Source: an uncultured Blautia sp.
GTDB lineage: Bacteria > Bacillota > Clostridia > Lachnospirales > Lachnospiraceae
Direction of reading: 5' to 3'
Length of the DNA stretch: 64,000 bases
Assembly: GCA_946626695.1 (NCBI GenBank)
Contig: CAMOUV010000001.1
Span: forward strand, 3,339 to 67,338
Positions 6,811-52,766 of the stretch are shown here, in pieces. The notes under the pieces are model-generated. The model made no database searches and had not been told where the DNA came from. It was given only the letters and a program-made list of their open reading frames with translations. The position numbers were made by a program, and so were the translations under genes. Within the stretch, counting starts at the first letter, position 1. The number at the start of each line of letters is the position of its first letter.

Positions 6811-6849
6811 AATCAGGTTTCTGGATTTTTTGGGAGAGGCGTGAACGAT

Positions 6850-7122
6850 ATGGCAGATACAAATCTTGGCAATACGCAGTTTTTCAGTACGAAGCCTGAG
6901 CAGGAGCTGCAGGTGAAGGAGGTTCTCGATCTGGTATACAATGCCATGGAAGAAAAGGGGTATAATCCTGTGAACCAGATCGTGGGTTATATCATGTCGG
7001 GAGATCCGACCTACATCACCAGCCATAAAGGCGCCCGCAGCATGATCATGAAGGTGGAACGGGACGAGCTGGTGGAAGAACTGCTGTACGAATATATTAA
7101 GAACCGGGCCTGGGAAGAGTGA
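6850..7122 (+). CDS. IreB/ReoM (UPF0297) family regulatory phosphoprotein
   Basis: [24 protein letters not shown] signature. Confidence 0.92.
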
Positions 7123-7834: not shown

Positions 7835-9739
7835 ATGTTTTTGAACAGCAATAAAAACCGTAACAGACATTTTGTCAATAATAAAAATCATCAGGGAAAA
7901 GACGCGAAGAAGATTCCGGCAAAGAATACCGGTAAAAATGCCGAACCTGTTAAGAATAAAACCAAAGAACCTACCAGGAATACCGCTGCCAAGAACAGCA
8001 GAAACAATACAAAAAGCCCATCCCGTCCCGTGACGGGAAAATTCTTCCCGGTGCAGACCAAGGGGAACGGAAAAAAAGGAAAGAAGCATGTCTCTCGGCT
8101 GAAAATCATCCCCCTGGGCGGTCTGGAGCAGATCGGCATGAACATCACGGTCTTCGAGTATGGGGACAGCATCGTTGTGGTGGACTGCGGGCTTTCCTTC
8201 CCGGAAGATGATATGCTCGGCATCGATCTGGTGATCCCGGATATCACCTATCTGAAGGAAAATATTCATAAAGTGAAGGGGTTTGTGATCACCCACGGAC
8301 ATGAGGATCATATCGGCGCCCTTCCCTATGTCCTGCGGGAAGTCAACGTCCCGATCTATTCCACCAAGCTGACCCTCGGCCTGATCACCAACAAGCTGAA
8401 AGAGCACGACATGGTCAAGACGACTAAGATGAAGGAGGTCCGTCATGGCCAGGTGATCAATCTGGGCGATTTCTCCATCGAATTCATCAAGACCAATCAC
8501 AGCATTCAGGATGCGTCGGCCCTGGCGATCTATTCGCCGGTGGGGATCGTTGTCCATACAGGCGATTTCAAGGTGGACTATACACCCGTCTTCGGGGATG
8601 CCATCGATCTGCAGCGTTTTGCGGAGATCGGCAAAAAGGGCGTGCTGGCTCTGATGTGCGACAGCACCAACGCCGAAAGACCGGGCTTTACCATGTCCGA
8701 ACGGACCGTGGGTCATGTGTTCGACAACCTGTTTAATGAAAACCGGAATTCCCGGATCATCATTGCAACCTTCGCTTCCAACGTGGACCGGGTGCAGCAG
8801 ATCATCAATACAGCCTACCGGTATGGCCGGAAGGTCGCCGTGGAAGGCCGCAGCATGGTCAACATCATCGCGGTGGCTTCGGAGCTGGGTTATCTGCGGG
8901 TTCCGGACCAGACCCTGATCGAGATCGATGAAGTCCGGAATTATCCGGACGAGCAGGTGGTGCTGATCACCACCGGAAGCCAGGGAGAGTCCATGGCGGC
9001 GCTTTCCAGAATGGCAGCGAGCATTCATAAAAAGATTACCATCAAGCCGAACGATACCATTATCTTCAGTTCGCATCCCATCCCGGGCAACGAGAAAGCG
9101 GTCTCCAAGGTGATCAACGAGCTTTCCATGAAGGGAGCCAAGGTCATTTTCCAGGATGCCCACGTATCCGGACATGCCTGCCAGGAGGAGATCAAGCTCC
9201 TTTATTCCCTGGTACGGCCGCGCTATGCGATCCCGGTGCACGGGGAATACCGTCATCTGACCGCCCAGGCCCATGTGGTGGAAGAGCTGGGGATCCCGAA
9301 GGACAATATCTTCATCCTTTCCTCCGGGAATGTGCTGGAGCTGGATGAGAGCGGCGCTTCCGTGACCGGAAGCGTACAGACCGGGGCGATCCTGGTGGAC
9401 GGCCTCGGCGTCGGCGATGTCGGCAATGTGGTCCTGCGGGACCGTCAGAGACTGGCGGAGGACGGCATCATCATCGTGGTGATGACACTGGAACGCCGGA
9501 GCAATGTGGTGCTGTCGGGACCGGATATCGTGTCCCGGGGCTTTGTGTATGTCAAGGAATCGGAGGATCTGATGGAGCATGCCAGGGAGGCCGTGCAGGA
9601 AGCCCTGGACACCTGCAGCGCCAGACGGATCAACGACTGGGGCCGGATCAAGAACGAGGTGAAGGACGCCCTTTCTTCCTACGTGTGGAAACGCACGAAA
9701 AGAAGCCCGATGATCCTTCCCATCATCATGGAGGCATAA
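7835..9739 (+). CDS. rnj: Ribonuclease J with a Lys/Asn-rich N-terminal extension
   Basis: IIPLGGLEQIGMN, THGHEDHIG, HTGDFKVD, HVSGHA, PMILPIIME. Confidence 0.95.
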   Translation: MFLNSNKNRNRHFVNNKNHQGKDAKKIPAKNTGKNAEPVKNKTKEPTRNTAAKNSRNNTKSPSRPVTGKFFPVQTKGNGKKGKKHVSRLKIIPLGGLEQIGMNITVFEYGDSIVVVDCGLSFPEDDMLGIDLVIPDITYLKENIHKVKGFVITHGHEDHIGALPYVLREVNVPIYSTKLTLGLITNKLKEHDMVKTTKMKEVRHGQVINLGDFSIEFIKTNHSIQDASALAIYSPVGIVVHTGDFKVDYTPVFGDAIDLQRFAEIGKKGVLALMCDSTNAERPGFTMSERTVGHVFDNLFNENRNSRIIIATFASNVDRVQQIINTAYRYGRKVAVEGRSMVNIIAVASELGYLRVPDQTLIEIDEVRNYPDEQVVLITTGSQGESMAALSRMAASIHKKITIKPNDTIIFSSHPIPGNEKAVSKVINELSMKGAKVIFQDAHVSGHACQEEIKLLYSLVRPRYAIPVHGEYRHLTAQAHVVEELGIPKDNIFILSSGNVLELDESGASVTGSVQTGAILVDGLGVGDVGNVVLRDRQRLAEDGIIIVVMTLERRSNVVLSGPDIVSRGFVYVKESEDLMEHAREAVQEALDTCSARRINDWGRIKNEVKDALSSYVWKRTKRSPMILPIIMEA

Positions 9740-9740
9740 T

Positions 9741-10079
9741 ATGGACCGGATCGAGATGCTTACGGAGCAGCTTCTGCAGGCGATCCTGGAGAGCGATATC
9801 TATAAGGACTACGTGGAACAGGAAGAAAGACTGGAACATATCCCCGGACTCAAAGACCGGGTGAACCGGTTCCGGGCCGATAATTTCCTGATGCAGCAGG
9901 AGAATCCGTCGGATCTCTATGCGGTCTCGGAGATCATGGAACAGCGGTCCGCCGAGCTTCGGAAGGTTCCGGAGGCAAACGCCTATCTGGAGGCGGAGCT
10001 GGCGGTCAACAAAATGATGCAGAAAATCTGCGGGACCCTGTTTGCGGGCATCCGGTACAGCGTACCGGAGGATGTGTGA
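9741..10079 (+). CDS. YlbF/YmcA (RicAFT-like) family regulator
   Basis: Small helical protein with AYLEAELAVNKMMQ; typical position after rnj. Confidence 0.7.
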   Translation: MDRIEMLTEQLLQAILESDIYKDYVEQEERLEHIPGLKDRVNRFRADNFLMQQENPSDLYAVSEIMEQRSAELRKVPEANAYLEAELAVNKMMQKICGTLFAGIRYSVPEDV

Positions 10080-12399: not shown

Positions 12400-15300
12400 T
12401 TGAAAAAGAGGATCGATGAGCTTTTGAATGGAGAATTTGAATATGAGCCGCCCGTTCTCATGTTTTCCCAGGAAAGCGTGGAGGTGGAGCTTCCGGCCGG
12501 CGAGACAGCCCAGAGAGAGCTGTATATCGGCACGGAACAGAACCGGAAGATCCGCGGGTATGTGACGTCCTCTGACCGGAGACTGGTGCCGGGACTGGAA
12601 ATCTTTTCCGGGACCACCATACGCCTTCCCTTCGGCATCGATGCGGTGGGCCTGCTTCCCGGCGAAGTCCGTGAGGAGTGGCTCTGCTTCACCACGAATG
12701 TGGGCGAGTATAAGATCCCGGTCACGATCCGTACCGGATCGGGGGTCCTGTCCACATCGGAGGGGGAGGTCCGCTCCCTCGATGATTTTGCGAAGATCGC
12801 GGAGGAGGATTTCCGGGAAGCTTATCGAATGTTCACGGATCCGGAGTTTGAGAGACTGTGCGAAAAGCAGTCCGACGGGAGGATCCGTTCCTTGTATGCC
12901 GGTCTGTCCGCGCAGCCGGTCACCTATCAGAACCTGGAGGAATTCCTGATCGCCGCCGGCCGGAAGGAGAAGGTCACGGTGCGACTCCAGGAATACCGGA
13001 GAGAAATTTTCGAGATCACCGAATCCACCCGGGAGTCGGTGCTCCTTACCCGCAGCGGCTGGGGCCATCTGCGGATGGATGTGGTGGTGGAAGGCGGCTT
13101 TATCGAGACGGAAAAGCGTGTGATCACCGATGAAGATTTTATCGGAAGCTCCTACAACCTGGCCTATGTGATCCGGCAGGAAAAGCTGGGAGAGGGCAAT
13201 CAGTACGGAGGGATCCGCATCATCACGCCCTATCAGGAGCTGTTCTTTGAGGTGGTCGCCTCCAGGACCATGCGCTCGGGGGTGCAGATCCATCTGGAGG
13301 AACAGAAATGCCGGCTGAATCTGATGCGGGATTATCTGGATTACCGCTGCCAGACGCTGGACTGTCCCGCCTGGGCGGCGCAGTCGCATTATGAACTGAA
13401 CCGGCTGAAGGATTCGGGCTTTGATTATCCGGAATACCGGATCTATGAGGTTTTTGTCCTCTGGAAGGAGGGCAAAAAGGAAGAGGCAGCGGATCTGCTG
13501 AGAGAGTTTCACAGCCAGTCCTTTATCCGTGACAACCCGGAGATCGCCGGACTGTATCTGTATCTCTGCTCCGAGGCCGGCCTGTACAAGGACAAGGATG
13601 CGGTCCTCCGCAGAATCCAGGCTTTGCGGGCCCGGAACGAAAAAAGCTTTGTCCTGCAGGAGATCCTGCTTCAGGTGGATCCGGAGCTGGTGCGGCTGCC
13701 CTCGAGGGCACTGTACGAGCTGGAGGAGCTTTTTGAGAGAGGCTGCCGGAACCCGGTCCTGTATCTGGAGGCCTGGGTGCGCATCTGCATGGATGAGAGC
13801 CTCCTGCACCGGCTCAGCCGTTTCTGGATCCAGGTATTTCTGTTCGCGGGACGGAAAGGGCTTCTGACCCAGGAGCTTACCAACCGTTTCACCTTCCTGT
13901 CCGGAAACGAAAAAGAATTCCGGGAGAGCCTGTACCGGGCGCTGGTGTACGGGTACGAGGCGTATCCCTCCGACGATTCGCTGGAGGCGATCTGCCAGTA
14001 TATCATGCGCGGAAACCCGCGGAAGAAGGAGTATTTCCGCTGGTTCGAGCTGGCCGTGGAGCGGGACATCCGTCTCACAAGGGTGTTTGAATATTATATG
14101 GAGACCCTGGACATTTCCTATCACCGGGAGCTGCCCAAGTCTCTTCTGATGTATTTCAACTACAACAACAGCAATCTGGGGGATACAAGAAAAGCCTACA
14201 TCTATGCGGATGTGATCGCGAACCGCGATCAGGATCCCCAGACCTACAAAAGCTATCAGGAGACCATCCGTTCCTTTGCCGCCCAGAAGATCCGGGAGGG
14301 CAGGGTCAGCGAGGATTATGCGCTCCTGTATCAGGAATATCTCCATTCACCGGAAAATCAGGAGGAGGCACGGATCCTTTCGGGCATCCTTTTCGTCAAT
14401 CGTCTGTACTGCGACAGCAAGAAGGTCCGCTGTGTGATCGTGCGGCACAGCCAGCTGGTGCGGGAAGAGCTGTATCCCTGTGTCCAGGGCGTTGCGTACC
14501 CGCGGATCTACACGTCGGACGCGGCTGTCCTGTTCCAGGACGACAAGCAGCGCCGTTACAGCGCCACGGTGGATTACAATCTGAAGAAACTGATGGACGA
14601 GCGGGATCTCATCCCGCAGATCCTTGAAAAACGATATACGGAGCCCGGGATCCTTCTGAATTACTGTGAGACCCGGGAGATCACCGAACAGAATCTGGCG
14701 GTTTTCCAGCAGGTGGTCCAGTCCGATTCCTTCACGCCGGAATACCAGAAAGAGATCCGCAGGAGGATCCTTTCCTGGTACCGGGAGAATGTGCGGGGCT
14801 CCGAGCTGGACGGACTTCTGAAAAAGCTGGACTATCGGGAATATGCCCTGGTGGACCGGAAGACGCTTCTGGAGATCCTGATCGAAAGGGGACTGTTCCG
14901 CCAGGCCTACAGGATCGTGGAGGAGTTCGGGGCAGAAGAGGTGAGCCGGCCGGATCTGCTGAAGCTGGTAAGCCGCATGATCATCCGGCGGGATATGCGG
15001 GAGGATGACGAGCTGATCGCGCTTTCTTCCCAGGTGTTCCGGAACGGACTTTATGACGAAATGATCCTCCGTTATCTGATGATGTACCGCAACGGTCCGG
15101 TGGATGAGCTGTTTGCCATCCGCAAAAGCGCCGAGGGCTTTGAACTGGACACCTATTCCTTTGACGAGAAGATCCTGCAGCTTCTGATGCTGACCCAGGA
15201 TTACCGGAAGGAAGGGGAAAAGGTCCTGGAAAGCTATGTCCGTGAGTCCGGCAGGGAGAAAATCATCGGGGCGTATCTGACCCAGCTTTCCTACGGCGCG

Positions 15301-15933
15301 TTCGTGAAGGAGCACGGGATCAGTCCCTTTGTGCGGAGCTGTCTGGAGACGGCCTTCCGGAACGAATGGGAAGTGGATCAGGTCTGCCATCTGGCGCTGT
15401 TCAAATCCCTGGTGCGGGAGAAGGACAGCCGGGGCGATTATAAAGAAATGAAAGAAAAGCTGCTCCGGGAGTGCATGGAAAAAGGAATGGTATTCGGCTT
15501 CTTCCGGAAGCTTCCCCAGGATATCCTGAGCCCCTGGCAGCTGGATGACAAAACCTTTGTGGAATGTCATGCCGGGCCCGATGCCTCGGTGACCCTGTTC
15601 TACCGGCTGGATTCGGGACTGGGGGATGACGGGAATTATGTGTCCCAGCCGCTTGCCCCGGTGTATCAGGGGATTTTTGTGAGAACCTTTACCTTGTTTT
15701 ACGGAGAAACGCTGCGGTATTATTTTGTCATCGAGGAAAACGGGAAGAGCCGTAAGACCTCGGAGCGCGTGCTTACCATGAACCGGGTGGAGGGGAATCC
15801 TTCCTCCCGTTATCAGCTGATCAATCAGCTGCTGTCCTCCCGGAAGCTGAAGAAGGACCGGGAGACGGCTGCGGGCCTGAAACAGTATCTCCGTCAGGAA
15901 CAGTATGTCAATGAAATGTTCAGACTGCAATAA
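12400..15933 (+). CDS. DUF5717-family large cytoplasmic protein (beta-rich N- and C-terminal domains, long helical core)
   Basis: 1177 aa ORF with native codon usage, TTG start after GGGG RBS. MKKRIDELLNGEFEY start and C-terminal FTLFYGETLRYY recalled as DUF5717. Confidence 0.7.
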   Translation: MKKRIDELLNGEFEYEPPVLMFSQESVEVELPAGETAQRELYIGTEQNRKIRGYVTSSDRRLVPGLEIFSGTTIRLPFGIDAVGLLPGEVREEWLCFTTNVGEYKIPVTIRTGSGVLSTSEGEVRSLDDFAKIAEEDFREAYRMFTDPEFERLCEKQSDGRIRSLYAGLSAQPVTYQNLEEFLIAAGRKEKVTVRLQEYRREIFEITESTRESVLLTRSGWGHLRMDVVVEGGFIETEKRVITDEDFIGSSYNLAYVIRQEKLGEGNQYGGIRIITPYQELFFEVVASRTMRSGVQIHLEEQKCRLNLMRDYLDYRCQTLDCPAWAAQSHYELNRLKDSGFDYPEYRIYEVFVLWKEGKKEEAADLLREFHSQSFIRDNPEIAGLYLYLCSEAGLYKDKDAVLRRIQALRARNEKSFVLQEILLQVDPELVRLPSRALYELEELFERGCRNPVLYLEAWVRICMDESLLHRLSRFWIQVFLFAGRKGLLTQELTNRFTFLSGNEKEFRESLYRALVYGYEAYPSDDSLEAICQYIMRGNPRKKEYFRWFELAVERDIRLTRVFEYYMETLDISYHRELPKSLLMYFNYNNSNLGDTRKAYIYADVIANRDQDPQTYKSYQETIRSFAAQKIREGRVSEDYALLYQEYLHSPENQEEARILSGILFVNRLYCDSKKVRCVIVRHSQLVREELYPCVQGVAYPRIYTSDAAVLFQDDKQRRYSATVDYNLKKLMDERDLIPQILEKRYTEPGILLNYCETREITEQNLAVFQQVVQSDSFTPEYQKEIRRRILSWYRENVRGSELDGLLKKLDYREYALVDRKTLLEILIERGLFRQAYRIVEEFGAEEVSRPDLLKLVSRMIIRRDMREDDELIALSSQVFRNGLYDEMILRYLMMYRNGPVDELFAIRKSAEGFELDTYSFDEKILQLLMLTQDYRKEGEKVLESYVRESGREKIIGAYLTQLSYGAFVKEHGISPFVRSCLETAFRNEWEVDQVCHLALFKSLVREKDSRGDYKEMKEKLLRECMEKGMVFGFFRKLPQDILSPWQLDDKTFVECHAGPDASVTLFYRLDSGLGDDGNYVSQPLAPVYQGIFVRTFTLFYGETLRYYFVIEENGKSRKTSERVLTMNRVEGNPSSRYQLINQLLSSRKLKKDRETAAGLKQYLRQEQYVNEMFRLQ

Positions 15934-15944
15934 GGAGCTATGGA

Positions 15945-17210
15945 ATGAATGAGATTCGGGATCTGATCATCGGAATCGATTTTGGAAAAGAAAATACACA
16001 GCTCTGCTACTATGACCGCAAGGCGGATGAGCCCCGCTCGATCTCCATGAAGGTGGGAGCCAATGTCTACGAAGCTCCAACGGCTTTATGCCGGAGAGCC
16101 GGGCAGGCCGAATACTCGGTGGGAATCGAGGCGGAATATTTTTCCCGGGAGAAAAACGGTTATCTGATCGAGAATCTCTACGAGATCACCGGGAAGGAGG
16201 AGCCGGTGCAGGTGCTGGAGGAATCCAGGGAGCCCTGGGAGCTGGCGGCTTCTTTTATCAAAGGCATGCTGCGGTATCTCGGGGTGATGGAAGTGATCCG
16301 GAACACCCGCTGCCTGTGCATCGCCACCCCGTCTCTCACGGATATCCGGGTGAAAAACCTGAAGCGTGCCTGCACATCCCTCGGGATCCCGGAGGACCGT
16401 TTTCTGCTGATGGATTACGGGGAAAGCTTCTTTTATTATGTGATGACGCAGAAAAAAGAGGTGGTGAACCGCAGTGTGGCCTGGTACATTTTTGACGGCA
16501 ATGAGGTCACCTTCCGGAAGCTTTCGGTCAACAACGCCAGAAAGCCCGTCCTGGTACAGCTTGAGGAGCCGGTAACGACGACGCTGCCGGAGACGGCCCG
16601 GGAAAGAGATTCGGCCTTCTGCACGTTTATCCAGGAAACGGTGGGGACGGAGCTGTTCTCCAGCATTCAGATCAGCGGGGAAGGCTTTGACACCGACTGG
16701 GCGAAACAGGCGGTAAAGCTTCTGTGTTTTCAGAAACGGAAGGTATATTATGGAAACAATCTTCATGCGGGAGGAGCCTGCGCGGCGGGAAAGGAACGCA
16801 TGGAGGACCGGAATCTTAAGAATATCCGCTTCTTGAGCCAGTCCATTGTCAGGGAAGACGTGGGGATGGAAATGCTGGTCATGGGGTCTCCGGCCTATGT
16901 GCCGCTGATCACCGGCGGAGAAAACTGGTATGAATGCAGCAGCCGCTGCGAGCTGATCCTCAATAAGACCGAAGACCTGGTGTTTGTGGTTCTGCGGATG
17001 GGCGAGACCGAGAAAAAGCGGGTCGTGATGCATCTTCCCGGACTGCCGGCAAGACCGGACAAGACGACCCGGCTTCTGCTGGAGCTGGCCTATGTTTCGC
17101 CGGACCGCTGCCGCATCACGGTGACGGATCTCGGCTTTGGCGATATGTTCCCCTCCAGCGGAAAGGTCTGGAAGGAGACAGTGAACTGGACAGAGGAGGG
17201 AGTATCATGA
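15945..17210 (+). CDS. DUF5716-family protein; divergent Hsp70/actin-like fold
   Basis: N-terminal IIGIDFG (cf. DnaK IIGIDLG); C-terminal LPGLPARPDKTTRL...VTDLGFG (cf. DnaK SBD-beta). Confidence 0.7.
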   Translation: MNEIRDLIIGIDFGKENTQLCYYDRKADEPRSISMKVGANVYEAPTALCRRAGQAEYSVGIEAEYFSREKNGYLIENLYEITGKEEPVQVLEESREPWELAASFIKGMLRYLGVMEVIRNTRCLCIATPSLTDIRVKNLKRACTSLGIPEDRFLLMDYGESFFYYVMTQKKEVVNRSVAWYIFDGNEVTFRKLSVNNARKPVLVQLEEPVTTTLPETARERDSAFCTFIQETVGTELFSSIQISGEGFDTDWAKQAVKLLCFQKRKVYYGNNLHAGGACAAGKERMEDRNLKNIRFLSQSIVREDVGMEMLVMGSPAYVPLITGGENWYECSSRCELILNKTEDLVFVVLRMGETEKKRVVMHLPGLPARPDKTTRLLLELAYVSPDRCRITVTDLGFGDMFPSSGKVWKETVNWTEEGVS

Positions 17211-18010
17211 CCGGATATATCCTTTGTCAGACAAAACGGACCGAAGTTCCCTTTTATCTGGAGAATATCAGCACCAACATCTACTCTCTGGAGGAGCTTT
17301 GCTATTTTCTGTACAACAATCTGTATCTTGTGGATGAGACTGTGATCCGGGAGGATCTGTGCCGCTGGATCGACACGGAGCTGCATCTGCCCGCCTTGGC
17401 GGCGAAGCTCCGGCCTCATCTGGGCAAGTTTGCGGATCTGCAGGATTTCCTGTATCCGATTTTCAAGGAGATCAATTACCTGACCTATGAGGAGCTGCGG
17501 AATCTGAACGGCCGCCTTGCCTCCCTGGAGGGGGAGACCCTCAGTGTGCGGAAGAAGCTGAAGGGGGATGCCCTGGTGCAGAACGGAATGTATGTCAATG
17601 CCATCCGTTCCTACCGGGAGATCCTTTCTTATGCGGAGTATCGTGTCGAACCGGAGCAGATGACCGAGGGAGAAAGAGAATTCGCATCGAAGGTCTGGCA
17701 TAATCTGGGCTGTGCCTATGCCCGCCTCTTTCAGATGGAAAAAGCGCTGGAATGCTTCTGGAAAAGCTTCGGGATCAGCGGAAAACGGGAGGAACTGAAA
17801 GTTTACCTGCTGGCCTTCCGGAGTGTGAGGACACCGCTGGAATATGAGAGCCGCCTGGCGGAGACCGGAGCGGATCAGGAAATGACGGCGGAGATCGAGC
17901 AGGAGCTGGATCGCTTTGCCCGTCTTCCGGAGACCCCGGTGTACGGGCGGAATATCGACAGTACCCTGGAACGGATCACCCGGGAATATCACAGGAGCAC
18001 AGGATCATAA
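17207..18010 (+). CDS. Conserved hypothetical protein with a TPR-like segment
   Basis: Overlaps the previous stop (ATGA). GDALVQNGMYVNAIRSY and KVWHNLGCAYARLFQMEKALECF are TPR-like helices. Confidence 0.75.
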   Translation: MTGYILCQTKRTEVPFYLENISTNIYSLEELCYFLYNNLYLVDETVIREDLCRWIDTELHLPALAAKLRPHLGKFADLQDFLYPIFKEINYLTYEELRNLNGRLASLEGETLSVRKKLKGDALVQNGMYVNAIRSYREILSYAEYRVEPEQMTEGEREFASKVWHNLGCAYARLFQMEKALECFWKSFGISGKREELKVYLLAFRSVRTPLEYESRLAETGADQEMTAEIEQELDRFARLPETPVYGRNIDSTLERITREYHRSTGS

Positions 18011-24782: not shown

Positions 24783-25544
24783 ATGACAAAACCCGTTTTT
24801 GTGAAAGACTGTATCATCGGGGAGGGAATCCCCTGTATCTGTGTGCCGGTGACCGGTAAAACCCGGGAGGAGATCCTCTCTCAGACGGCCGAAGCAGTAA
24901 AGGCCGGAGCCGATCTGGTGGAATGGCGGGCGGATCTGTGGGAAGAAGAGAACCGCCTGGCCCGGGTGGAAGAAATGCTCTTTGCCCTGGACGGTGTCCT
25001 GAAGGGAATTCCGCTTCTGTTCACGGTCCGGTCCTCGGAGGAGGGGGGGATCCTTGCGATCTCGCCGGAGGAGCAGACGGCACTGATCGAACGGGCGGCC
25101 GCCAGCGGAAAAACGGATCTGGCGGATGTGGAATATCTGCGGGATCCCGAGGCGATGAAACGTCTGATCCGGAATCTGCATTCCCGGGGCGTGGCCGTGA
25201 TCGCTTCCTCCCATGATTTTGAAAGAACGGGAACCAGGGAGGAGCTTCTGGAAAAGCTGGACCGGCTGGATCAAAGCGGGGCAGACATCCTGAAACTGGC
25301 CGTCATGCCGGAAAACAGCGAAGATGTGGAGGTGCTGATGGAAGCGGTCTCCGAGATGAGCCGGAACCATACGCAGAAACCGCTGATCGCCATGTCCATG
25401 GGAGACCTGGGGCAGATCAGCCGGATCCGGGGCGAAGCCTTCGGATCTTCCGTCACCTTCGGAACAGCCGGACCCGGGTCTGCGCCCGGACAGCTTCCCG
25501 TGGCGGAGCTGCGTGAAAAGATGGAAGCCTTTCATACCGTGTAA
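24783..25544 (+). CDS. aroD: Type I 3-dehydroquinate dehydratase
   Basis: ADLVEWRAD, LLFTVRSSEEGG, SSHDFERT, KLAVMP, IAMSMGDLGQISR, APGQ. Confidence 0.94.
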   Translation: MTKPVFVKDCIIGEGIPCICVPVTGKTREEILSQTAEAVKAGADLVEWRADLWEEENRLARVEEMLFALDGVLKGIPLLFTVRSSEEGGILAISPEEQTALIERAAASGKTDLADVEYLRDPEAMKRLIRNLHSRGVAVIASSHDFERTGTREELLEKLDRLDQSGADILKLAVMPENSEDVEVLMEAVSEMSRNHTQKPLIAMSMGDLGQISRIRGEAFGSSVTFGTAGPGSAPGQLPVAELREKMEAFHTV

Positions 25545-25559: not shown

Positions 25560-25593
25560 CAAAATCTCGAAAAACCTCGAAAAAGCTCGAACG
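25560..25593. repeat. Three-unit 10-bp tandem array (A)AAAA[T/C/G]CTCG + AACG, copy 1
   Basis: caaaatctcg aaaaacctcg aaaaagctcg aacg; nearly identical array at 61661-61704. Confidence 0.9.
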
Positions 25594-25606: not shown

Positions 25607-25650
25607 TTCGACAGGGTTCGACAAGATTCTGAAAAGAGATCCGTTATAAT
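25607..25650 (+). promoter_or_regulatory. Putative Spo0A-dependent promoter: two perfect 0A boxes over the -35 region plus TATAAT
   Basis: TTCGACA at 25607-25613 and 25617-25623 (reverse complement of TGTCGAA); TATAAT at 25645-25650; no consensus -35. Confidence 0.7.
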
Positions 25651-25718
25651 ACCCCTGCACAACATACAGTAAGCGAAGCGTTTTTCTTCGTTTACGGGAA
25701 AGTGAGGGGGCAGGGCGT

Positions 25719-26336
25719 ATGTACGGCACACAGGCGGAAAAAACGGCCGGTTACAAAGAAGAACAGGATCTGCTGCGGCGGATGCGGAGAGAGAAGGACA
25801 GGAAGGCCCGGGAACGGCTGATCTGCGGATCTCTCTGGATGGTCCGGCATATTGCAGGGCAGTTTCACGTATATGGAACCGCTGAGGATCTGGTTTCCGT
25901 GGGAACACTGGGCCTGATCAAGGCCGTGGATTCCTACGACAGCCGGAAGAAAAACCGGCTTGGCTGTTACGCGGTCCGCTGTATTGCCAACGAGATCCGC
26001 ACCTATCTTCGCAAAGAAGGCGCTCACATGACGGTATCGCTGGAGACATTGCCGGACCAGAATCTGTTGTACAGGGAGGGCTCCATGGAACCGATCGGAA
26101 AAACCTATCCAGAGCCGCAGAAAGCGGCGGAAAAAGCCTGGGAGCTGCAGTGCCTCGCGGCGCTGCTGGAGAAACTGCCGGAGATGGACCGGGAGCTGCT
26201 CCGTCTTCGGTTTCTGGAGGACCGGCCGATGACCCAGAGGGAAACGGCAGAGAAACTCGGAACCAGCCAGTCCTATGTCTCCCGCCGGGAAAAAAAGATC
26301 CTCGCCGCTTTACGGGGCGGACTGGAGGCAGAATGA
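25719..26336 (+). CDS. SigE/SigK-family RNA polymerase sigma factor without pro-sequence (SigE-like, divergent)
   Basis: EDLVSVGTLGLIKAVDSY (region 2.2-2.3), YAVRCIANEI, TQRETAEKLGTSQSYVSRREKKIL (region 4.2, SigE-like SQSY); RBS GAGGGGG. Confidence 0.85.
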   Translation: MYGTQAEKTAGYKEEQDLLRRMRREKDRKARERLICGSLWMVRHIAGQFHVYGTAEDLVSVGTLGLIKAVDSYDSRKKNRLGCYAVRCIANEIRTYLRKEGAHMTVSLETLPDQNLLYREGSMEPIGKTYPEPQKAAEKAWELQCLAALLEKLPEMDRELLRLRFLEDRPMTQRETAEKLGTSQSYVSRREKKILAALRGGLEAE

Positions 26337-26495: not shown

Positions 26496-27803
26496 ATGGG
26501 AAGATATTTTCAGCCGGAGATCGAGACTGCATCGCAGGAACAGATCCGGGAGTGGCAGAGTGAACGTCTTGTAAGACAGATTCAGAACGTCTGGGACAAT
26601 GTACCAATATATCGTAAAAGGATGGAAGAAGCAGGGCTGACCCCCGCGGACATTCAGTCGGTGGATGACCTGAAAAAGCTTCCGTTTATCACAAAAGATG
26701 ATCTCAGAGATGAATACCCCTTTGGACTTCTGGCAAGACCTCTCAGTGAGTGTGTCCGTATTCAGTCAACAAGCGGTACTACCGGACGCCGTGTGGTAGC
26801 CTTCTACACCCAGCATGACGTGGACCTGTGGGAGGAGTGCTGTGCAAGAGCGATCGTGGCAGCCGGAGGAACGGAAGAGGATGTCTGCCAGATCTGCTAC
26901 GGCTATGGACTGTTTACCGGCGGCCCCGGACTGAACGGCGGTTCCCACAAGGTGGGATGCCTTACCCTTCCCATGTCTTCCGGAAATACAGAGAGACAGA
27001 TCCAGTTCATGACGGACCTTGGCTCCACCATTCTCTGCTGCACGCCTTCCTATGCAGCCTATCTGGCAGAAAGCATTCATGAAAGAGGCGTTCGCGACCA
27101 GATCAGACTGAAGGCAGGCATCTTCGGCGCAGAAGCATGGACCGAAGAAATGCGTCATGACATCGAAGACAAGCTTGGCATCAAGGCATATGATATTTAC
27201 GGACTGACCGAGATCTCCGGCCCCGGCGTATCCTTCGAGTGTTCCGAACAGCGCGGCATGCATGTCAATGAGGATCATTTTATCGCGGAGGTCATCAATC
27301 CGAAGACCGGCGAGGTTCTGCCGGACGGTGAAAAAGGCGAACTGGTGTTTACCAGCATCACCAAGGAAGCCTTCCCGCTGATCCGTTACCGTACAAGGGA
27401 CATCTGCATCCTGACCCACGAGAAGTGCTCCTGCGGCCGTACCCATGTCCGCATGACCAAACCGCTGGGCCGCAGCGACGACATGCTGATCGTCAAGGGC
27501 GTCAATGTATTCCCGTCCCAGATCGAGACCGTTCTGATCAACAAGGGATATCCGGCAAACTATCAGATCATCGTCGACCGTGTGAACAACAGCGATACCA
27601 TTGAGGTTCAGGTGGAGATGACACCGGAGATGTTCTCCGACAGTCTGAGTGCGGTTTCCGCCAAGGAAAAAGAACTGGTCGACGCGCTGAAGGCGATGCT
27701 CGGCATCTATGCGAAAGTGAAGCTGGTCAATCCGAAAGCCATTACCCGGAGCGAGGGCAAGGCCGTCCGTGTCATTGACAAGCGTAACCTGTATCAGGGA
27801 TAA
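26496..27803 (+). CDS. paaK: Phenylacetate (arylacetate)-CoA ligase
   Basis: QSTSGTTG P-loop, YGYGLFTGG, DIYGLTEISGPGV, PLIRYRTRD, GRSDDMLIVKGVNVFPSQIE, GKAVRVID. Confidence 0.92.
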   Translation: MGRYFQPEIETASQEQIREWQSERLVRQIQNVWDNVPIYRKRMEEAGLTPADIQSVDDLKKLPFITKDDLRDEYPFGLLARPLSECVRIQSTSGTTGRRVVAFYTQHDVDLWEECCARAIVAAGGTEEDVCQICYGYGLFTGGPGLNGGSHKVGCLTLPMSSGNTERQIQFMTDLGSTILCCTPSYAAYLAESIHERGVRDQIRLKAGIFGAEAWTEEMRHDIEDKLGIKAYDIYGLTEISGPGVSFECSEQRGMHVNEDHFIAEVINPKTGEVLPDGEKGELVFTSITKEAFPLIRYRTRDICILTHEKCSCGRTHVRMTKPLGRSDDMLIVKGVNVFPSQIETVLINKGYPANYQIIVDRVNNSDTIEVQVEMTPEMFSDSLSAVSAKEKELVDALKAMLGIYAKVKLVNPKAITRSEGKAVRVIDKRNLYQG

Positions 27804-39598: not shown

Positions 39599-41731
39599 AT
39601 GATACAGACAGGGAAATGGATTGCAAAACATAAAAAGCTGATCCTCCTGATCTCCGTGCTGCTTCTGATCCCGTCCGCGTTCGGGTATGTATCCACCAGA
39701 GTCAATTATGACCTGCTGAGCTACCTGCCCACATCGCTGGATACGGTGAAGGGCCAGAACATCATGGTGGATGATTTCGGGATGGGAGCTTTTTCCATGA
39801 TCGTTGTTGAGGACATGCCTTTGAAGGATGTCGCCGCTATGAAGGAGGATCTGGAGAAGGTGGATCATGTGAAGAGCGTTCTCTGGTATGACAGCATCAT
39901 GGATCTGTCGGTGCCGGTGGAAATGCTTCCGGAGAGGATCCGGGAGGCGTTCTTCCAGGGAGACGCCACGATGATGATCGCGCTTTTTGATGACTCCACA
40001 TCCTCCGACGCTTCCATGAAAGCCGTGGAGGATCTGCGGAAGATCGTGAAGAAGGACTGTTTTGTGAGCGGCATGACCAGCGTGATCCTGGACGTTCGGG
40101 ATCTTGCCATGCAGGAAATGCCGATCTATGTGGTGATCGCCGCCCTCCTTTCCCTGGTGGTCCTGATGCTGGCCATGGAATCGACGCTGGTGCCTGTATT
40201 GTTCCTCTTAAGCATCGGCTTTGCCGTGGTCTACAACCTGGGCACCAATTTCCTGATGGGACAGATTTCCTATGTGACCCAGGCGCTGGCGGCGGTGCTG
40301 CAGCTGGGTGTGACCATGGATTACTCCATCTTCCTGCTGCACAGCTATCAGCGTTTCAAAAAGGAAATGGAAGGAGACAATGATACGGCCATGGCCTATG
40401 CCATAGCGGCCACCTTCAAATCCGTGGTCGGAAGCTCCGTTACCACCATCGCAGGGTTTGTGGCTCTTTGCTTCATGACCTTCACGCTGGGGCTGGATAT
40501 GGGGATCGTCATGGCCAAGGGTGTCGTGATCGGAGTGATCGTCTGCATCACGGTGCTGCCGGCGATGGTGCTCCTTTTTGACAAGGCGATCGAAAAGACG
40601 ACCCACCGCTCGATCCTTCCTTCCTTTGAAAAAACATCGGCTTTCATCACAAAGCATTCGATCTTCGGACTGGTCCTGTTTGCAGTGCTCTTGTATCCGG
40701 CCGTATACGGCAACAATCATGTGAATGTTTACTACAATATGGATGCCACGCTTCCGAAGGATCTGCCGAGCCAGGTGGCCAACGCAAAGCTGGAAGAGGA
40801 CTTCAACATGAACACCGTCCACATGGTGATGCTGAAAAAAGGAATGTCCTCCAGCGACAAGATTGCCATGAGCGATGAGATCAAAGCGCTGGACGGTGTC
40901 CGCTGGGCACTGGGGGGAAGCACGCTGATCGGCCCGGCCTTCCCGGAATCCATGATCCCGCAGACGCTTCGGGACAAGCTGGAGAGCGACGAGTACGAGA
41001 TGCTTTTTGTCTGCTCGGAGTACCATGTGGCCACGCCGGAGATCAACCGGCAGATCGACCAGCTGAAGGAGATCGTGGAACGGTACAGTCCGTCCTCTCT
41101 GGTGATCGGCGAAGGACCGCTGACCGAGGATCTGATCAAGGTGACGGATACGGACTTCAAAAACGTGAGCGCGGTATCCATCATCGCGATCCTGGTGATC
41201 ATCCTGATTGTGTTCCGTTCGGTGTCCCTGCCGTTCATCCTGGTGGCCGTGATCGAATTTGCCATTTTCATCAACATGGCGGTGCCTTACTACCAGGGCG
41301 TCACGCTTCCCTTTGTGGCGAGCATTATCATCGGAACGGTACAGCTGGGGTCCACCGTTGACTACGCGATCCTGATGACCAGCCGCTTTCAGGCCGAAAG
41401 GTCGGCGGGGAAGAGCAAGAAGGAAGCCATCGCCATCGCCCACAGCGCCAACATGAAATCCATCGTGACAAGCGGTCTGGCTTTCTTTGCGGCGACCTTC
41501 GGCGTAGGTCTGTACTCCGAGGTAGATATGATCAGTGCGATCTGCACGCTGCTGGCCAGAGGCGCTTTGGTCAGCATGGCGGTGGTGCTCCTGGTGCTGC
41601 CGGCCATGTTCATGATCTTTGATCCGCTGATCTGCCATACATCGATGGGCTTTCTGCCCCCGAAGGCAAAGAAAAACAAAAACCAGAACGCAGTATCGGA
41701 CACGGATCTGCGCTCATCACATACCGCGTAA
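39599..41731 (+). CDS. MMPL/RND-family transporter
   Basis: Two repeats of TM + extracytoplasmic domain + 5 TM; QLGVTMDYSIFL and QLGSTVDYAILM motifs. Confidence 0.9.
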   Translation: MIQTGKWIAKHKKLILLISVLLLIPSAFGYVSTRVNYDLLSYLPTSLDTVKGQNIMVDDFGMGAFSMIVVEDMPLKDVAAMKEDLEKVDHVKSVLWYDSIMDLSVPVEMLPERIREAFFQGDATMMIALFDDSTSSDASMKAVEDLRKIVKKDCFVSGMTSVILDVRDLAMQEMPIYVVIAALLSLVVLMLAMESTLVPVLFLLSIGFAVVYNLGTNFLMGQISYVTQALAAVLQLGVTMDYSIFLLHSYQRFKKEMEGDNDTAMAYAIAATFKSVVGSSVTTIAGFVALCFMTFTLGLDMGIVMAKGVVIGVIVCITVLPAMVLLFDKAIEKTTHRSILPSFEKTSAFITKHSIFGLVLFAVLLYPAVYGNNHVNVYYNMDATLPKDLPSQVANAKLEEDFNMNTVHMVMLKKGMSSSDKIAMSDEIKALDGVRWALGGSTLIGPAFPESMIPQTLRDKLESDEYEMLFVCSEYHVATPEINRQIDQLKEIVERYSPSSLVIGEGPLTEDLIKVTDTDFKNVSAVSIIAILVIILIVFRSVSLPFILVAVIEFAIFINMAVPYYQGVTLPFVASIIIGTVQLGSTVDYAILMTSRFQAERSAGKSKKEAIAIAHSANMKSIVTSGLAFFAATFGVGLYSEVDMISAICTLLARGALVSMAVVLLVLPAMFMIFDPLICHTSMGFLPPKAKKNKNQNAVSDTDLRSSHTA

Positions 41732-41789: not shown

Positions 41790-44700
41790 ATGAACAGAAA
41801 CAGGAAAATAGCAAGTGTGACCATGGCAGCAGGAATGGCTGTGGTTCTGGGCAGCAGCCCGGTCCTTGCCGCCGGAGACGAAACGCTTCCGGTGACGAAG
41901 GAAGAGACCGTATACGTCAATGCAGATGCGTCCGGAGAGACCGAACAGATCATCGTTTCCGACTGGCTGAAAAATTCCGGGAATGCCGGAGGCCAGGTGG
42001 AAGATCTGTCAGATCTTTCGGATATTGAAAATGTGAAGGGCGATGAGACCTTTACCCAGGAAGGAAGCAGGCTGATATGGAATACAGACGGGGCCGATAT
42101 CTATTATCAGGGAACCACGGACAAAGAGCTTCCGGTTTCCATGAAGATCACCTATTATCTGGACGGGCAGGAGATCAGCGCGAAGGAGCTGGCAGGAAAG
42201 AGTGGTCATCTTCGCATGGAGGTTTCGTATGAGAACCATACCGGAGTGGAAAAAATGATCGGCGGAGAAAAGACCACGGTGTATTCCCCCTTCCTTCTGG
42301 CCACGGCCACGCTGCTTCCGACAGACAAATTCACCAATGTGGAGGTGACCAACGGGAAGCTGATCTCGGACGGCAGCCGGGATGTGGTGATCGGATTTGC
42401 GATCCCGGGACTTCAGGAGAGCCTCGATCTTCCGGAAGAGCTTACGGATGAGCTCGAGATCCCGGAAGGTTTTTCCATGGAGGCGGATGTGACGGACTGC
42501 GAACTGAATTCCACCTATACCATCGCCCTGACGGACAGCATCAAGGATCTGGACCTGACCGGCATGGACGGGCTGGACAGCCTGAAGGACAAGATGGATC
42601 AGCTGGAAGAGGCTTCGATGAAGCTGGTGGACGGATCCGGTGAACTGTATGACGGCGTGGATACATTATATACGAAATACAAGGATTTCCACGATGGCGT
42701 GAAGGAGCTGATGAACGGCTCTGCCGAGCTGAACAGCGGCGTGGGGACGCTTGCCTCCGGCGCCGGCGATCTGGCGGATGGAGCGGCAGCTCTCCGGGAC
42801 GGCGCAAGGGATCTGAACAGCGGCGTATCCCAGGTGAATTCCGGGGCTGCGGAACTGGACAGCGGTGCGGGAGAGCTGCGGGACGGCGCCCGGGAACTGG
42901 CAACGGGAGCCCTGCAGGTGAACAGCGGAACGACTGCGCTGTATGACGGTGCGGTGCAGCTGCGGGACGGCGCCCGGGAACTGAGTACGGGAGCCGGATC
43001 CCTGAAGAGCGGAGCATCGGAAGTAAACGACGGTGCAGTGAAGCTTCGCGACGGAGCAAAGGAACTGAGCGCCGGCGCCGATACGCTGAAAGATGGTATT
43101 CAGAGTGCGAAGAGCGGGACGGACGAACTGAAAAGCGGCGCAGCCAGCCTGAATACCGGTGCCGGAACCTTGAAAGCCGGTACCCGGAAGCTTTCCGACG
43201 GAGCGAAGGATCTGGCAGGCGGCGCAGGACAGCTGTCCTCAGGCGTAAAGAATTACACGGACGGAGCGGACAGTCTCTCTGCCGGCGTACAGCAATTCGT
43301 AAGCGGCGTACAGGAAGCACTCACCAAGGTTTCTGAGTACGGGAAAGGCGTGAATACGCTGGCAGAAGGCGTAAAGTCCTATGTGGCCGGCAGCAGCCAG
43401 CTGACCGCCGGTGTAACAGAGTATACGACCGGAGCAGCTTCGCTGGCCAACGGAGTCTTGAGCCTGAACGAGAAATCCGGCGCGCTGATCAGCGGCATCA
43501 CGGATCTTTCCGACGGGATCGATGCATATACATCGGGCGTAGAGTCCGTAAAGAAAGGCTTTGATCAGTATTCGCAGGCTGTCGGTACTCTTTCACAGGG
43601 AACGGCGGCCTTGCAGGAAGGGGCAAAGGCTCTTCCGGATGGAATGGCATCTCTTTCGGAAGGAATCACTGCGGCACAGACAGGAGCTGCGGATCTGCAG
43701 ACCGGCAGCGATTCGCTCGCGTCGAACCTCTCCTCCATAGCAGAGCAGCTGCAGACGGCGGCCGGATCGGTTCCTTCCGTGGATCTTTCCGGCATCAGCG
43801 GTGCGAAGGACAACATCGCAGGAGGGCTTACCACCGCGCAGACCGGTGTTCAGTCCGCAGCCGGATCCGCAGCATCCGTACAGGCAGACCTGACACAGGC
43901 AGCTGCCGTTCTCCAGGGAATCGACACGAGCGCACTGTCTCCGGAAGCCCAGACCGCCATTGCCGGTGCCCTCGCCCAGATCGGGGCGGCGGGAACAGAC
44001 CTTGGCGGGGTATCCGCGGGACTTACCAGCGCGGGCGGCGGACTGCAGACAGCCGCAGCCGGAGCCGAAGCGATCGGTACGGCGGCAGCATCGTTGTCAG
44101 GGATCGATGTATCCGGGATCCAGAGCAGTCTGACTGCCGCCGCTTCCGGAATCAGCCAGTGCGCAGACGGAGCCGGCCGGCTCAGTGCAGGGATCACCCA
44201 GCTGTCCGGCGGACTCACCCAGCTGAAGAGCGGCGCCGATGCGGCGAAGCAGGGAGCTTCCGAAGTCGTTGACAATCTGGGCAAGGTTTCGGAAGGGCTG
44301 AAGGAGCTGGCTTCCAACACACAGCTTACCGAAGGACTGGAGGAGCTCTCCTCCAAGGGAACGGAACTCTCTTCCGGTGCACAGCAGCTGAGCGGTGCCG
44401 TTCCGGAACTGAGCACGGGTCTTTCCCAGCTGGCAGCAGGAGCCCGGACCCTGATCTCTTCCGGCCAGACACTGGCGGCAGGGGCAAAATCTCTGCAGGA
44501 GAACGATACTACACTGACATCCGGGGCAAACGAGCTTTCGGAGGCGACCGGTCAGCTTTCCGGCGGCCTTACACAGATCACGGATGCCGCCGGAAAACTC
44601 TCCGACGGCGCAAAGGAGCTCTCGGCAAACAGCGCAGCTTTGAACAGCGGTGCATCTCAGATCGCGGCGGGCTCGACAGCGCTCGCCTCCGGTGCCGCCG

Positions 44701-45446
44701 AATTGGATACCGGAGCCGCTGCTCTTTCCGGCGGCAGCGGGAAACTGTATGAGGGAATCCGCACTCTTTCTTCCGGCGCAGCCAGACTCTATGACGGAGC
44801 GGCAAATCTTGCGACCGGAGCCGGAACCCTGTACAGCGGGACGAGTACTCTTGCGTCAGGAACAAAGCAGCTCTCTGACGGAGCCGCCGAGCTCTCTACA
44901 GGAGCCGGAACCCTGTACAAAGGAACCCGGGATCTTACGTCCGGGACACAGACTCTTTCGAGCGGAACCTCTCAGCTTGCGGATGGCGCAAAGACATTGT
45001 ATGCCGGCACCAGAACACTGAAATCCGGGACGAGTGAGCTGAGCAGCGGCACTTCGAAGCTCGCAGAAGGAAGCAGTACTTTGTACAAAGGAACCCAGGA
45101 TCTGGCAGCCGGTTCCAACAAACTGTACGCCGGAACGGGAACATTACAGGACGGTACGCTCCAGCTGGCGGACGGAAGCCGTGACCTGTTCAAGGGCAGC
45201 CGTCAGGTGTATGACGGGATCGAAGATCTCCGGGACGGCGCTGAGCAGCTCCGGGATGGAGAAGAGAAATTCAACGAGCAAGGCATAGAAAGGCTGAAAG
45301 AGGTGCTCGGAGATGAGTTTGACAAGATCATGGATCGTCTCGCCGCGGTGCAGGATGAGGATGTGACCTACACCTCCTTTACGGAAAAAGCAGAAGGGAT
45401 GGACGGAAGCATCCGCTTCATCATCGAGACCGAGCCGGTACGATAA
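41790..45446 (+). CDS. Secreted X-X-X-Leu-X-X-Gly heptad-repeat protein (YhgE/Pip-N-like partner of MMPL)
   Basis: Signal peptide, TKEETVYV/YYQGT globular N-domain, roughly 880 residues dominated by xxxLxxG heptads, short C-terminal FIIETEPV. Confidence 0.85.
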   Translation: MNRNRKIASVTMAAGMAVVLGSSPVLAAGDETLPVTKEETVYVNADASGETEQIIVSDWLKNSGNAGGQVEDLSDLSDIENVKGDETFTQEGSRLIWNTDGADIYYQGTTDKELPVSMKITYYLDGQEISAKELAGKSGHLRMEVSYENHTGVEKMIGGEKTTVYSPFLLATATLLPTDKFTNVEVTNGKLISDGSRDVVIGFAIPGLQESLDLPEELTDELEIPEGFSMEADVTDCELNSTYTIALTDSIKDLDLTGMDGLDSLKDKMDQLEEASMKLVDGSGELYDGVDTLYTKYKDFHDGVKELMNGSAELNSGVGTLASGAGDLADGAAALRDGARDLNSGVSQVNSGAAELDSGAGELRDGARELATGALQVNSGTTALYDGAVQLRDGARELSTGAGSLKSGASEVNDGAVKLRDGAKELSAGADTLKDGIQSAKSGTDELKSGAASLNTGAGTLKAGTRKLSDGAKDLAGGAGQLSSGVKNYTDGADSLSAGVQQFVSGVQEALTKVSEYGKGVNTLAEGVKSYVAGSSQLTAGVTEYTTGAASLANGVLSLNEKSGALISGITDLSDGIDAYTSGVESVKKGFDQYSQAVGTLSQGTAALQEGAKALPDGMASLSEGITAAQTGAADLQTGSDSLASNLSSIAEQLQTAAGSVPSVDLSGISGAKDNIAGGLTTAQTGVQSAAGSAASVQADLTQAAAVLQGIDTSALSPEAQTAIAGALAQIGAAGTDLGGVSAGLTSAGGGLQTAAAGAEAIGTAAASLSGIDVSGIQSSLTAAASGISQCADGAGRLSAGITQLSGGLTQLKSGADAAKQGASEVVDNLGKVSEGLKELASNTQLTEGLEELSSKGTELSSGAQQLSGAVPELSTGLSQLAAGARTLISSGQTLAAGAKSLQENDTTLTSGANELSEATGQLSGGLTQITDAAGKLSDGAKELSANSAALNSGASQIAAGSTALASGAAELDTGAAALSGGSGKLYEGIRTLSSGAARLYDGAANLATGAGTLYSGTSTLASGTKQLSDGAAELSTGAGTLYKGTRDLTSGTQTLSSGTSQLADGAKTLYAGTRTLKSGTSELSSGTSKLAEGSSTLYKGTQDLAAGSNKLYAGTGTLQDGTLQLADGSRDLFKGSRQVYDGIEDLRDGAEQLRDGEEKFNEQGIERLKEVLGDEFDKIMDRLAAVQDEDVTYTSFTEKAEGMDGSIRFIIETEPVR

Positions 45447-52643: not shown

Positions 52644-52668
52644 AACATCCTGCGGAAAAGAATTTCCG

Positions 52669-52697: not shown

Positions 52698-52766
52698 TCT
52701 TGTTCAGGATTTATTTCGTTTACGATCCGGTAAGGAACCGTTCCTAAGCGGGACATGGAGGTCACA

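Follow-up and report, generated by a model that had tools for sequence, protein, structure and literature searches.

The subject of this analysis is a short sigma factor gene located at 25719..26336 in a 64,000-nucleotide (nt) stretch of contig CAMOUV010000001.1 from an uncultured Blautia sp.; the whole stretch is hereafter called the window, and coordinates without a locus name refer to it. As a whole, we explain the gene as encoding a form of the sporulation sigma factor SigE that lacks the pro-sequence and is free of SpoIIGA, that stands behind a promoter of the spoIIG type, and that is driven by a remodelled Spo0A; judging from comparisons of sequences, we hold this explanation to be fairly probable. 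Its core, a SigE-like sigma factor without pro-peptide and without SpoIIGA, had been proposed in an earlier note made from the letters of the window, and is supported by comparative synteny and by pro-less gene starts in all five lineages compared. The label "orphan" used there does not fit, since the gene keeps a spoIIG-type promoter with Spo0A boxes and the gene for a remodelled Spo0A lies 36 kb away.

The sigma factor gene and its predicted protein

The gene and its ribosome-binding signal are as follows.

25719..26336 (stop codon included), + strand: gene for a pro-less, highly divergent SigE-derived sigma factor; open reading frame (ORF) and translation, 205 amino acids (aa), ATG start
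25704..25710, + strand: Shine-Dalgarno-like GAGGGGG, 8 nt 5' of the ATG, read from the sequence

All the residues of this ORF that the earlier note had quoted are present (alignment A5). In particular, the window protein has CIANEIRTYLRK where SigE has CIENEILMYLRR, its HNLRLV segment reads GSLWMV, and its region 4.2 carries TSQSYVSRREKK. Direct reading also confirms that the ORF cannot be extended upstream: an in-frame TAA lies at 25647, and neither ATG nor GTG nor TTG occurs from this codon to the ATG of the gene.

The protein belongs to the sigma-70 family. Pfam identifies Sigma70_r2 at residues 42-101 and Sigma70_r4 at residues 149-199, with scores of 46.2 bits for PF04542 and 50.3 bits for PF04545, both over the cutoff, and TIGR02937 scores 97.9 against a cutoff of 42.9. 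The top NCBIfam models are SigE and then SigK, both scoring far under their curated cutoffs: the SigE equivalog models NF006158 and TIGR02835 give 121.8 (cutoff 339) and 112.2 (348.6), and the SigK models NF004471 and TIGR02846 give 114.2 (252) and 110.4 (298.65). For comparison, the SigE-model score is 100.7 for P0002, an orthologue of the window protein, and 381.8 for P0012, a true SigE.

An AlphaFold model calculated with an alignment of homologues as input has a predicted local distance difference test (pLDDT) score of 84.9, with confident sigma2 (residues 5-103) and sigma4 (132-204) domains. When this model is searched with Foldseek, all the matches are sigma factors, and the N-terminal domain of SigE (8b3z) is among the nearest structures, with a template modelling (TM) score of 0.89 and 48% identity. 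It is conceivable that the protein is not an initiation factor at all, and acts instead as a regulator that binds RNA polymerase or DNA, for example as a competitor for the core enzyme. Such a role would agree with the retention of region 2.2 (core binding) and region 4.2 (helix-turn-helix) while the residues for -10 recognition and melting vary freely, and with the modelled disorder of region 3, but the sigma2-linker-sigma4 architecture is intact, extracytoplasmic function (ECF) sigma factors function with the same two domains, and no precedent was found in the searches made; we regard this possibility as very improbable.

Position of the gene in related genomes

The two genes that flank the sigma factor gene, which the earlier note had named and gene calls confirm, served as synteny anchors.

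24783..25544, + strand: aroD, type I 3-dehydroquinate dehydratase (Pfam DHquinase_I); upstream synteny anchor
26496..27803, + strand: PaaK-type phenylacetate-CoA ligase, a called gene with its own conserved promoter; downstream synteny anchor

On the 5' side aroE is followed by aroD, which lies directly 5' of the sigma factor gene with a gap of 174 nt, and there is no spoIIGA in that spot; on the 3' side lie the PaaK-type ligase, an ACT protein, a radical-SAM activase and iorAB. Orthologous loci were traced through homologues of the neighbouring AroD among metagenome loci that we fetched (named L001-L108). Five lineages contain a short sigma factor gene, namely the window, species B (L001/L019), L103, L102 and L104, and L107/L106 serve as the outgroup. 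The gene order in these loci, with the identity of their AroD to that of the window, is as follows.

L001/L019 (species B), AroD 76% identity: aroD - 229-aa sigma - paaK
L103, AroD 70% identity: aroD - 190-aa sigma - paaK - ACT
L102, AroD 62% identity: aroD - 200-aa sigma - paaK - ACT
L104, AroD 57% identity: aroD - 206-aa sigma - DAHP synthase
L107/L106 (outgroup), AroD 53%: aroD - sulfatase - small ORF - MatE - nitroreductase-like - spoIIGA - sigE - 143-aa ORF - paaK - ACT

The short sigma factor gene (190-229 aa) is followed by paaK and ACT in four of the five lineages, the exception being L104. In the outgroup, spoIIGA encodes a Peptidase_U4 protein of 283 aa and sigE a protein of 242 aa, and this SigE is canonical, with a pro-sequence and YYIGG (YYIGGTDVLPAPL). 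None of the other SigE/SigK loci sampled from metagenomes adjoins aroD or paaK. Orthology by genomic position therefore identifies the gene: because the outgroup has a canonical spoIIGA-sigE pair in this same aroD...paaK interval, the short sigma factor gene is, by its position, the descendant of sigE from which spoIIGA has gone, and not an extra paralogue. The presence of orthologues with the same flanks in four other lineages also excludes a chance ORF.

N-terminus and residues diagnostic of SigE

All five orthologues start within a few residues of the mature N-terminus of SigE, at the YIGG..LPxPL segment (alignment A5), and a search for upstream in-frame start codons in all five found none that is usable. 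For example, L104 starts with MRKYEAGPLPKSF and L102 with MRTDRLPEPLS, where canonical SigE has YIGGTDVLPAPLE. The window protein has no pro-sequence of the kind cleaved by SpoIIGA; as the gene starts show, the predicted protein is made already in its "mature" form.

In B. subtilis, Q217 decides between SigE and SigK specificity for the -35 element (PMC3789822). The SigE anchors in alignment A5 share Gln at this position, and the SigK anchors have Arg (SRS). All five orthologues have Gln here, in the context SQS in four and HQS in L102, and the window sigma factor accordingly lacks the Arg of SigK. The earlier note had called for a phylogeny. A neighbour-joining (NJ) bootstrap tree clusters four of the orthologues (89% bootstrap) and does not provide the placement with SigE or SigK for which a phylogeny was wanted, and scores of hidden Markov models (HMMs) do not separate a SigE from a SigK origin either; since both are uninformative on origin, we used synteny and the Q217 residue for this purpose.

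Conservation among the orthologues (alignment A5) peaks in region 2.2 (EDLVS.G..GLIKAVD) and region 4 (..Q.E.AE..G.SQS..SRRE.KIL); variation or loss affects the HNLRLV segment, residues of region 2.3/2.4 and the region 3 motif DEPL..DGNE. L104, which still has HNLRLV and LPxSF, is the most canonical end of the orthologue series, and the window protein stands at the other end. Since the residues of region 2.3/2.4 depart from SigE and also vary from one orthologue to another, a shift in promoter specificity is plausible.

Close relatives of the protein are rare. Among 5.8 billion proteins, only P0001, a near-identical protein from metagenome contigs, and P0002 (54% identical) are closer to it than ordinary SigE/SigK, which are found at about 40-45% identity; this result was reproduced when 1.8 billion cluster representatives were searched with a profile. 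A search of GTDB species genomes for a close relative found none, the best match having 37% identity. DNA of the window is present in goat, sheep and other gut metagenomes. As a separate observation, metagenomes contain many other SigE/SigK-like proteins of 200-220 aa without a pro-sequence (P0241-P0262), among which P0261 shares HNLWLV..SIAGKY with the window protein, P0257 has the C-terminus SRKEKKIL, and P0241 resembles an internally duplicated or misassembled SigK. From these proteins, loss of the pro-peptide may have been repeated more than once.

The promoter and its Spo0A boxes

Three elements were identified upstream of the gene.

25645..25650, + strand: TATAAT, -10 hexamer of the predicted sigma factor gene promoter, from the alignment of the window with L001 and an anchored comparison of all orthologues
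25607..25623, + strand: two perfect, directly repeated Spo0A boxes 3 bp apart, each reading TTCGACA (TGTCGAA on the opposite strand)
25566..25591, + strand: three CTCGAAAAAn repeats phased at 10 bp, conserved in L001, L019 and L103

The core of the 0A box is TGTCGAA (PMC3485338). In the window two such boxes stand in tandem in reverse orientation, TTCGACAgggTTCGACA, and the proximal box also forms a -35-like TCGACA, 21 nt 5' of the -10 hexamer. In the comparison between the window and species B, the 100 nt 5' of the predicted start are more conserved than the coding sequence, and this conservation ends abruptly after TATAATACCCCTGCA; the start site was placed at about 25657-25659 from this end point. 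Although TTCGACA occurs six times in the window, which is about the chance number, two of these copies lie 10 bp apart at the sigma factor gene promoter. L001, L019 and L103 share both the tandem boxes and the 21-nt distance with the window, and in L104 one box stands at this distance. Counted by lineage, four of the five have TTCGACA-21 nt-TA(T/C)AAT, and three have two perfect tandem boxes. Among the 108 loci, the pattern TTCGACA-N21-TAYAAT occurs only 5' of these sigma factor genes (one occurrence in the window against 0.07 expected), and no tandem 0A boxes were found upstream of the other sigma loci.

The outgroup promoter PspoIIGA of L107 is the direct comparator for spacing. Its sequence is TGTCGAA ... 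TTTGACA-21 nt-TATAAT; the spacer is over-long to the same extent, and a near-0A box occupies the -35-like position. The spoIIG promoter of B. subtilis is reportedly sigma-A dependent and activated by Spo0A~P, with its -35 and -10 elements about 22 bp apart (work of Satola, Kenney and Moran). The over-long spacer is the defining oddity of the spoIIG promoter and makes it dependent on Spo0A~P. Comparison with L107 shows that the predicted promoter of the sigma factor gene keeps this spoIIG-type layout; going by the matching architecture, sigma-A transcription of the gene would depend on Spo0A. Note that a simple sigma-70 promoter scan found the paaK promoter and missed that of the sigma factor gene, because the spacer of the latter is 21 nt. 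Rfam gave no matches in the window, so that known RNA elements do not account for the conserved intergenic blocks.

The gene might also be a functional SigE descendant that is not activated by Spo0A, with the boxes being remnants or repressor sites and expression being constitutive or due to read-through from aroD. We consider this rather unlikely. No terminator was found between aroD and the sigma factor gene, L102 has no perfect boxes, Spo0A acts as a repressor at other promoters, and a Spo0A without its receiver would lack the dimerisation surface that normally aids occupancy of tandem boxes. Against these points, perfect boxes at fixed spacing have been kept through synonymous saturation, a -35-like element 21 nt from the -10 hexamer is a poor sigma-A promoter by itself and is the arrangement of the canonical PspoIIGA of L107, and a repeat array shared with the upstream region of spo0A (see below) points to a common regulator.

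The CTCGAAAAAn repeats may be weak 0A-like boxes, phased or bent A-tracts, or sites of another protein, as far as their sequence indicates. In L102, at 6770..6870 upstream of P0244, the most divergent of the paaK-linked orthologues, about eight phased (T/A)CACGAA repeats replace TTCGACA; going by this replacement, they may reflect a shifted operator specificity. Downstream of the sigma factor gene, the paaK promoter has a conserved extended -10 element (26387-26415, TTTACC-17-TGTTATGAT) that is near-identical in L001 and L019, and metatranscriptome contigs start at 26446, about 30 nt 3' of this promoter.

The truncated Spo0A

The candidate activator and the second repeat array lie together near the end of the window.

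61849..62487, + strand: Spo0A homologue, 212 aa from a TTG start, directly after recN; receiver domain truncated, DNA-binding domain intact
61667..61702, + strand: four phased CTCGAAAAAn repeats, 3' of the recN stop codon and 5' of the spo0A promoter region

The DNA-binding domain is present (PF08769, Spo0A_C), and a complete receiver with its phospho-acceptor is not: there is no match to PF00072, and TIGR02875 scores 166.4 against a cutoff of 200, aligning at profile positions 144-260 only and leaving the N-terminal part unmatched. Compared with the normal Spo0A of Lachnospiraceae (265-268 aa), about 55 receiver residues are missing (alignment A4). The protein belongs to a small clade of 212-226 aa proteins that have Spo0A_C without a detectable receiver domain and that come from ruminant gut metagenomes (L099, L100, L101 and L108, in addition to the window). 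In the subclade of the window, H, R, R or S stands in place of the phospho-acceptor Asp, His being the residue in the window itself (A4); more distant members of the clade retain both this Asp and the ADD pocket. The recognition helix, SRVERAIRHAI, has been preserved (A4). The closest named full-length Spo0A proteins are those of Lachnospiraceae such as Blautia and Fusicatenibacter. The isolated DNA-binding domain of Spo0A binds its targets without phosphorylation (PMC3485338), and the truncated Spo0A probably does so as well, because half of the receiver and the phospho-acceptor Asp have been lost.

Within 64 kb there are two CTCGAAAAAn arrays, one 5' of the sigma factor gene and the other 5' of spo0A (five matches against 0.13 expected). 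The orthologous array in L108 contains AGTCGAA, and the normal spo0A promoters of relatives have consensus TGTCGAA boxes. Because the array stands 5' of both genes, they share a cis-element and probably a regulator as well.

In the normal relative L098, spoIVB (8554..9756) lies between recN and spo0A. When this interval was examined for spoIVB (Peptidase_S55), it was absent in the window (61662..61849) and in L099 (9811..10001). According to PMC8340488, former spore-formers make up about 84% of rumen-associated Firmicutes. We infer that the lineage no longer sporulates, because spoIIGA and spoIVB are missing at their positions and most rumen Firmicutes are reported to be former spore-formers.

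These data also bear on the possibility that a normal spoIIGA-sigE pair is present elsewhere in the genome, that sporulation is kept, and that the window gene is an extra paralogue with a side role. The view afforded by 64 kb of the genome, the many short divergent SigE/K-like proteins in metagenomes, and the failure of HMM scores and the NJ tree to settle SigE versus SigK or the position of the clade would all accommodate a paralogue. Nevertheless, the gene sits exactly at the spoIIGA-sigE slot of the outgroup with the same flanks, spoIVB is gone from its conserved position, Spo0A has no phospho-acceptor, and former spore-formers are reported to prevail in the rumen as cited above, and we regard a paralogue as quite unlikely.

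Selection and alleles

Between the window and species B, the sigma factor gene shows a non-synonymous divergence (dN) of 0.395 and a synonymous divergence (dS) of 1.66, the latter being saturated, with an omega of 0.24; the corresponding omega values are 0.20 for aroD and 0.02 for paaK. Within the species, the window and the P0001 allele differ by 12 synonymous changes and one conservative non-synonymous change (R174K), which gives an omega of roughly 0.03 when the site counts of the window-species B comparison are used. The 180 nt upstream contain one or two changes between these two alleles, at a synonymous divergence of about 8%. An independently found contig, L018, has six synonymous and two non-synonymous differences. 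Among the alleles of species B, seven are full-length and intact, another two run off the ends of their contigs, and a further one (L019) is disrupted. Judged by these substitution patterns, the gene is under purifying selection and is not a pseudogene.

As an alternative to a working factor, the earlier note had suggested a decaying relic, that is, a functionless remnant of sigE drifting to a pseudogene after the loss of sporulation. The signs of purifying selection mostly reject this suggestion, and we consider it unlikely. A relic would explain why the protein evolves much faster than canonical SigE, why its promoter-recognition residues vary and the DEPL..DGNE motif of region 3 is lost, why one strain (L019) carries a nonsense allele, and why no transcript contigs cover the gene. 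It would not explain why an intact ORF is found at the same locus in five lineages with AroD identities down to 57%, why synonymous changes outnumber non-synonymous ones within the species and omega remains low between species, why the promoter is more conserved than the coding sequence, why regions 2.2 and 4.2 are conserved in all orthologues, or why species B has seven intact full-length alleles.

Proposed mechanism

We propose that the gene is the sigE of a rumen Lachnospiraceae-like lineage after deletion of spoIIGA and of the pro-peptide codons. Vegetative sigma-A RNA polymerase would transcribe it only when Spo0A is on the two tandem boxes, and the truncated Spo0A would bind these perfect boxes unphosphorylated and activate the sigma-A polymerase at the mis-spaced promoter. 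Because activation of pro-SigE normally requires SpoIIGA and SpoIIR (PMC3789829), the sigma factor would be active once made, with no cleavage, and would bind the core RNA polymerase through region 2.2 and region 4. It would then drive a small lineage-specific set of genes in which the -10 motif has diverged from the consensus of SigE. Both early post-translational checkpoints, the phosphorelay and the cleavage by SpoIIR/SpoIIGA, would be gone, and the residue would be a purely transcriptional cascade from Spo0A to an altered SigE (SigE*), kept by selection, probably in a former spore-former. A more specific form of the proposal is a two-gene remnant circuit under selection in a rumen clade of former spore-formers, in which a phosphorylation-independent Spo0A controls a pro-less SigE that has been retargeted to a new, fast-evolving, non-spore regulon; we put this forward tentatively, as a possibility for which the odds are somewhat below even.

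Several observations weigh against the proposed explanation. As to the protein, residues 105-129 (region 3) are disordered in the AlphaFold model, and the -10 element is read by residues of region 2.3/2.4 that are unconserved even between orthologues. The orthologues are only 30-55% identical to each other, as compared with 65% for two distantly related true SigE proteins. Their NJ tree has very long branches, leaves L104 outside the cluster of the other four, and does not place the clade with SigE rather than SigK. In L019, a single strain, a premature TAG at codon 148 (2237..2239) replaces the Glu of YPEPQKA. As to regulation, L102 has no perfect 0A box, and this one contig is the only one on which the truncated Spo0A and the sigma factor gene are seen to be physically linked. 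The loss of sporulation and the lack of a second sigE are deduced from a view limited to 64 kb of the genome. Finally, gut metatranscriptome contigs cover paaK onward and neither aroD nor the sigma factor gene. In the best metatranscriptome sample, the organism is present at about 5-7x in the DNA and almost absent from the RNA contigs; the missing contigs for the sigma factor gene weigh little, because the organism is too rare in these samples.

Comparison with known systems

The window sigma factor resembles the canonical pro-sigma E/SpoIIGA system in its chromosomal position, which is that of the outgroup operon, in its sigma2/sigma4 fold, and in its identity to the SigE N-terminal domain structure. 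Further features in common with canonical SigE are the Gln corresponding to Q217 and a promoter in which Spo0A boxes are combined with an over-long spacer. It differs in having no pro-sequence and no spoIIGA and in its changed HNLRLV segment, region 2.4 and region 3 motif. Its promoter differs from the canonical PspoIIGA of L107, where the box overlapping the -35 position (TTTGACA) is imperfect, in that the boxes are perfect consensus. The spoIIG promoter of B. subtilis is matched in layout by the promoter of the window gene, where the -35-like hexamer coincides with a 0A box, the consensus -10 follows after 21 nt, and more boxes lie 5' of these elements; unlike the B. subtilis case, the window has two perfect tandem boxes, the sigma factor gene is driven directly, and the activator is predicted to be unphosphorylatable.

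The statement in the earlier note that SigE and SigK are normally made as inactive pro-proteins needs one qualification, since a pro-less SigK is already known: in C. difficile, SigK has no pro-sequence and there is no SpoIVFB or BofA (PMC3789829). The two cases are alike in that a mother-cell-type sporulation sigma factor is made without a pro-peptide and the matching protease has been lost. However, the SigK of C. difficile is otherwise conserved in sequence and works in a fully sporulating host, whereas the window case concerns a highly divergent SigE with other signs of sporulation loss. The truncated Spo0A resembles the isolated effector domain, which binds 0A boxes unphosphorylated once the receiver has been removed (PMC3485338), but in the present case the shortening arose in nature, has become fixed throughout a clade, and leaves the first half of the receiver in place. 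Receiver domains without the Asp are also the subject of PMC4395418.

Loss of sporulation is frequent in host-associated Firmicutes, above all in the rumen, and a few such genomes keep spo0A, according to the available parts of PMC8340488 and bioRxiv 10.1101/2022.02.25.481979. In those parts, neither a remodelled sigE under selection nor a receiver-truncated Spo0A is described for the former spore-formers. Our literature search, the coverage of which was incomplete, brought up no account of either a retained pro-less SigE or a clade of receiver-truncated Spo0A proteins.

Other features of the window

An operon at 12400..18010 encodes large DUF5717 and DUF5716 proteins and a tetratricopeptide repeat (TPR)-like protein of unknown function, and is conserved in L003, a contig of the same species. 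A secreted protein of 1218 aa (41790..45446), which consists mostly of degenerate Ser/Gly/Ala/Thr-rich repeats, adjoins an MMPL-family transporter (39599..41731) and a TetR regulator. In addition, prfC lies directly 5' of asp23-nusB (51054..53660), and likewise in L099. In B. subtilis, the spoIIIA operon lies a few genes 5' of the asp23-nusB block.

Significance

In the lineage described here, evolution has removed the protease and the pro-peptide and has kept the sigma factor together with its Spo0A-type promoter, and the partner Spo0A has no phosphorylation site. If the module is active, it would represent a developmental cascade that was simplified and reused after the developmental programme had been lost, and would provide naturally "constitutive" versions of two regulators that have been studied intensively. 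Graded from L104 to the window, the five orthologues are a useful series in which to ask which residues of a sigma factor are free to change after loss of the sporulation regulon. For genome annotation, the presence of spo0A or of a sigE-like gene should not count as evidence for the ability to sporulate.

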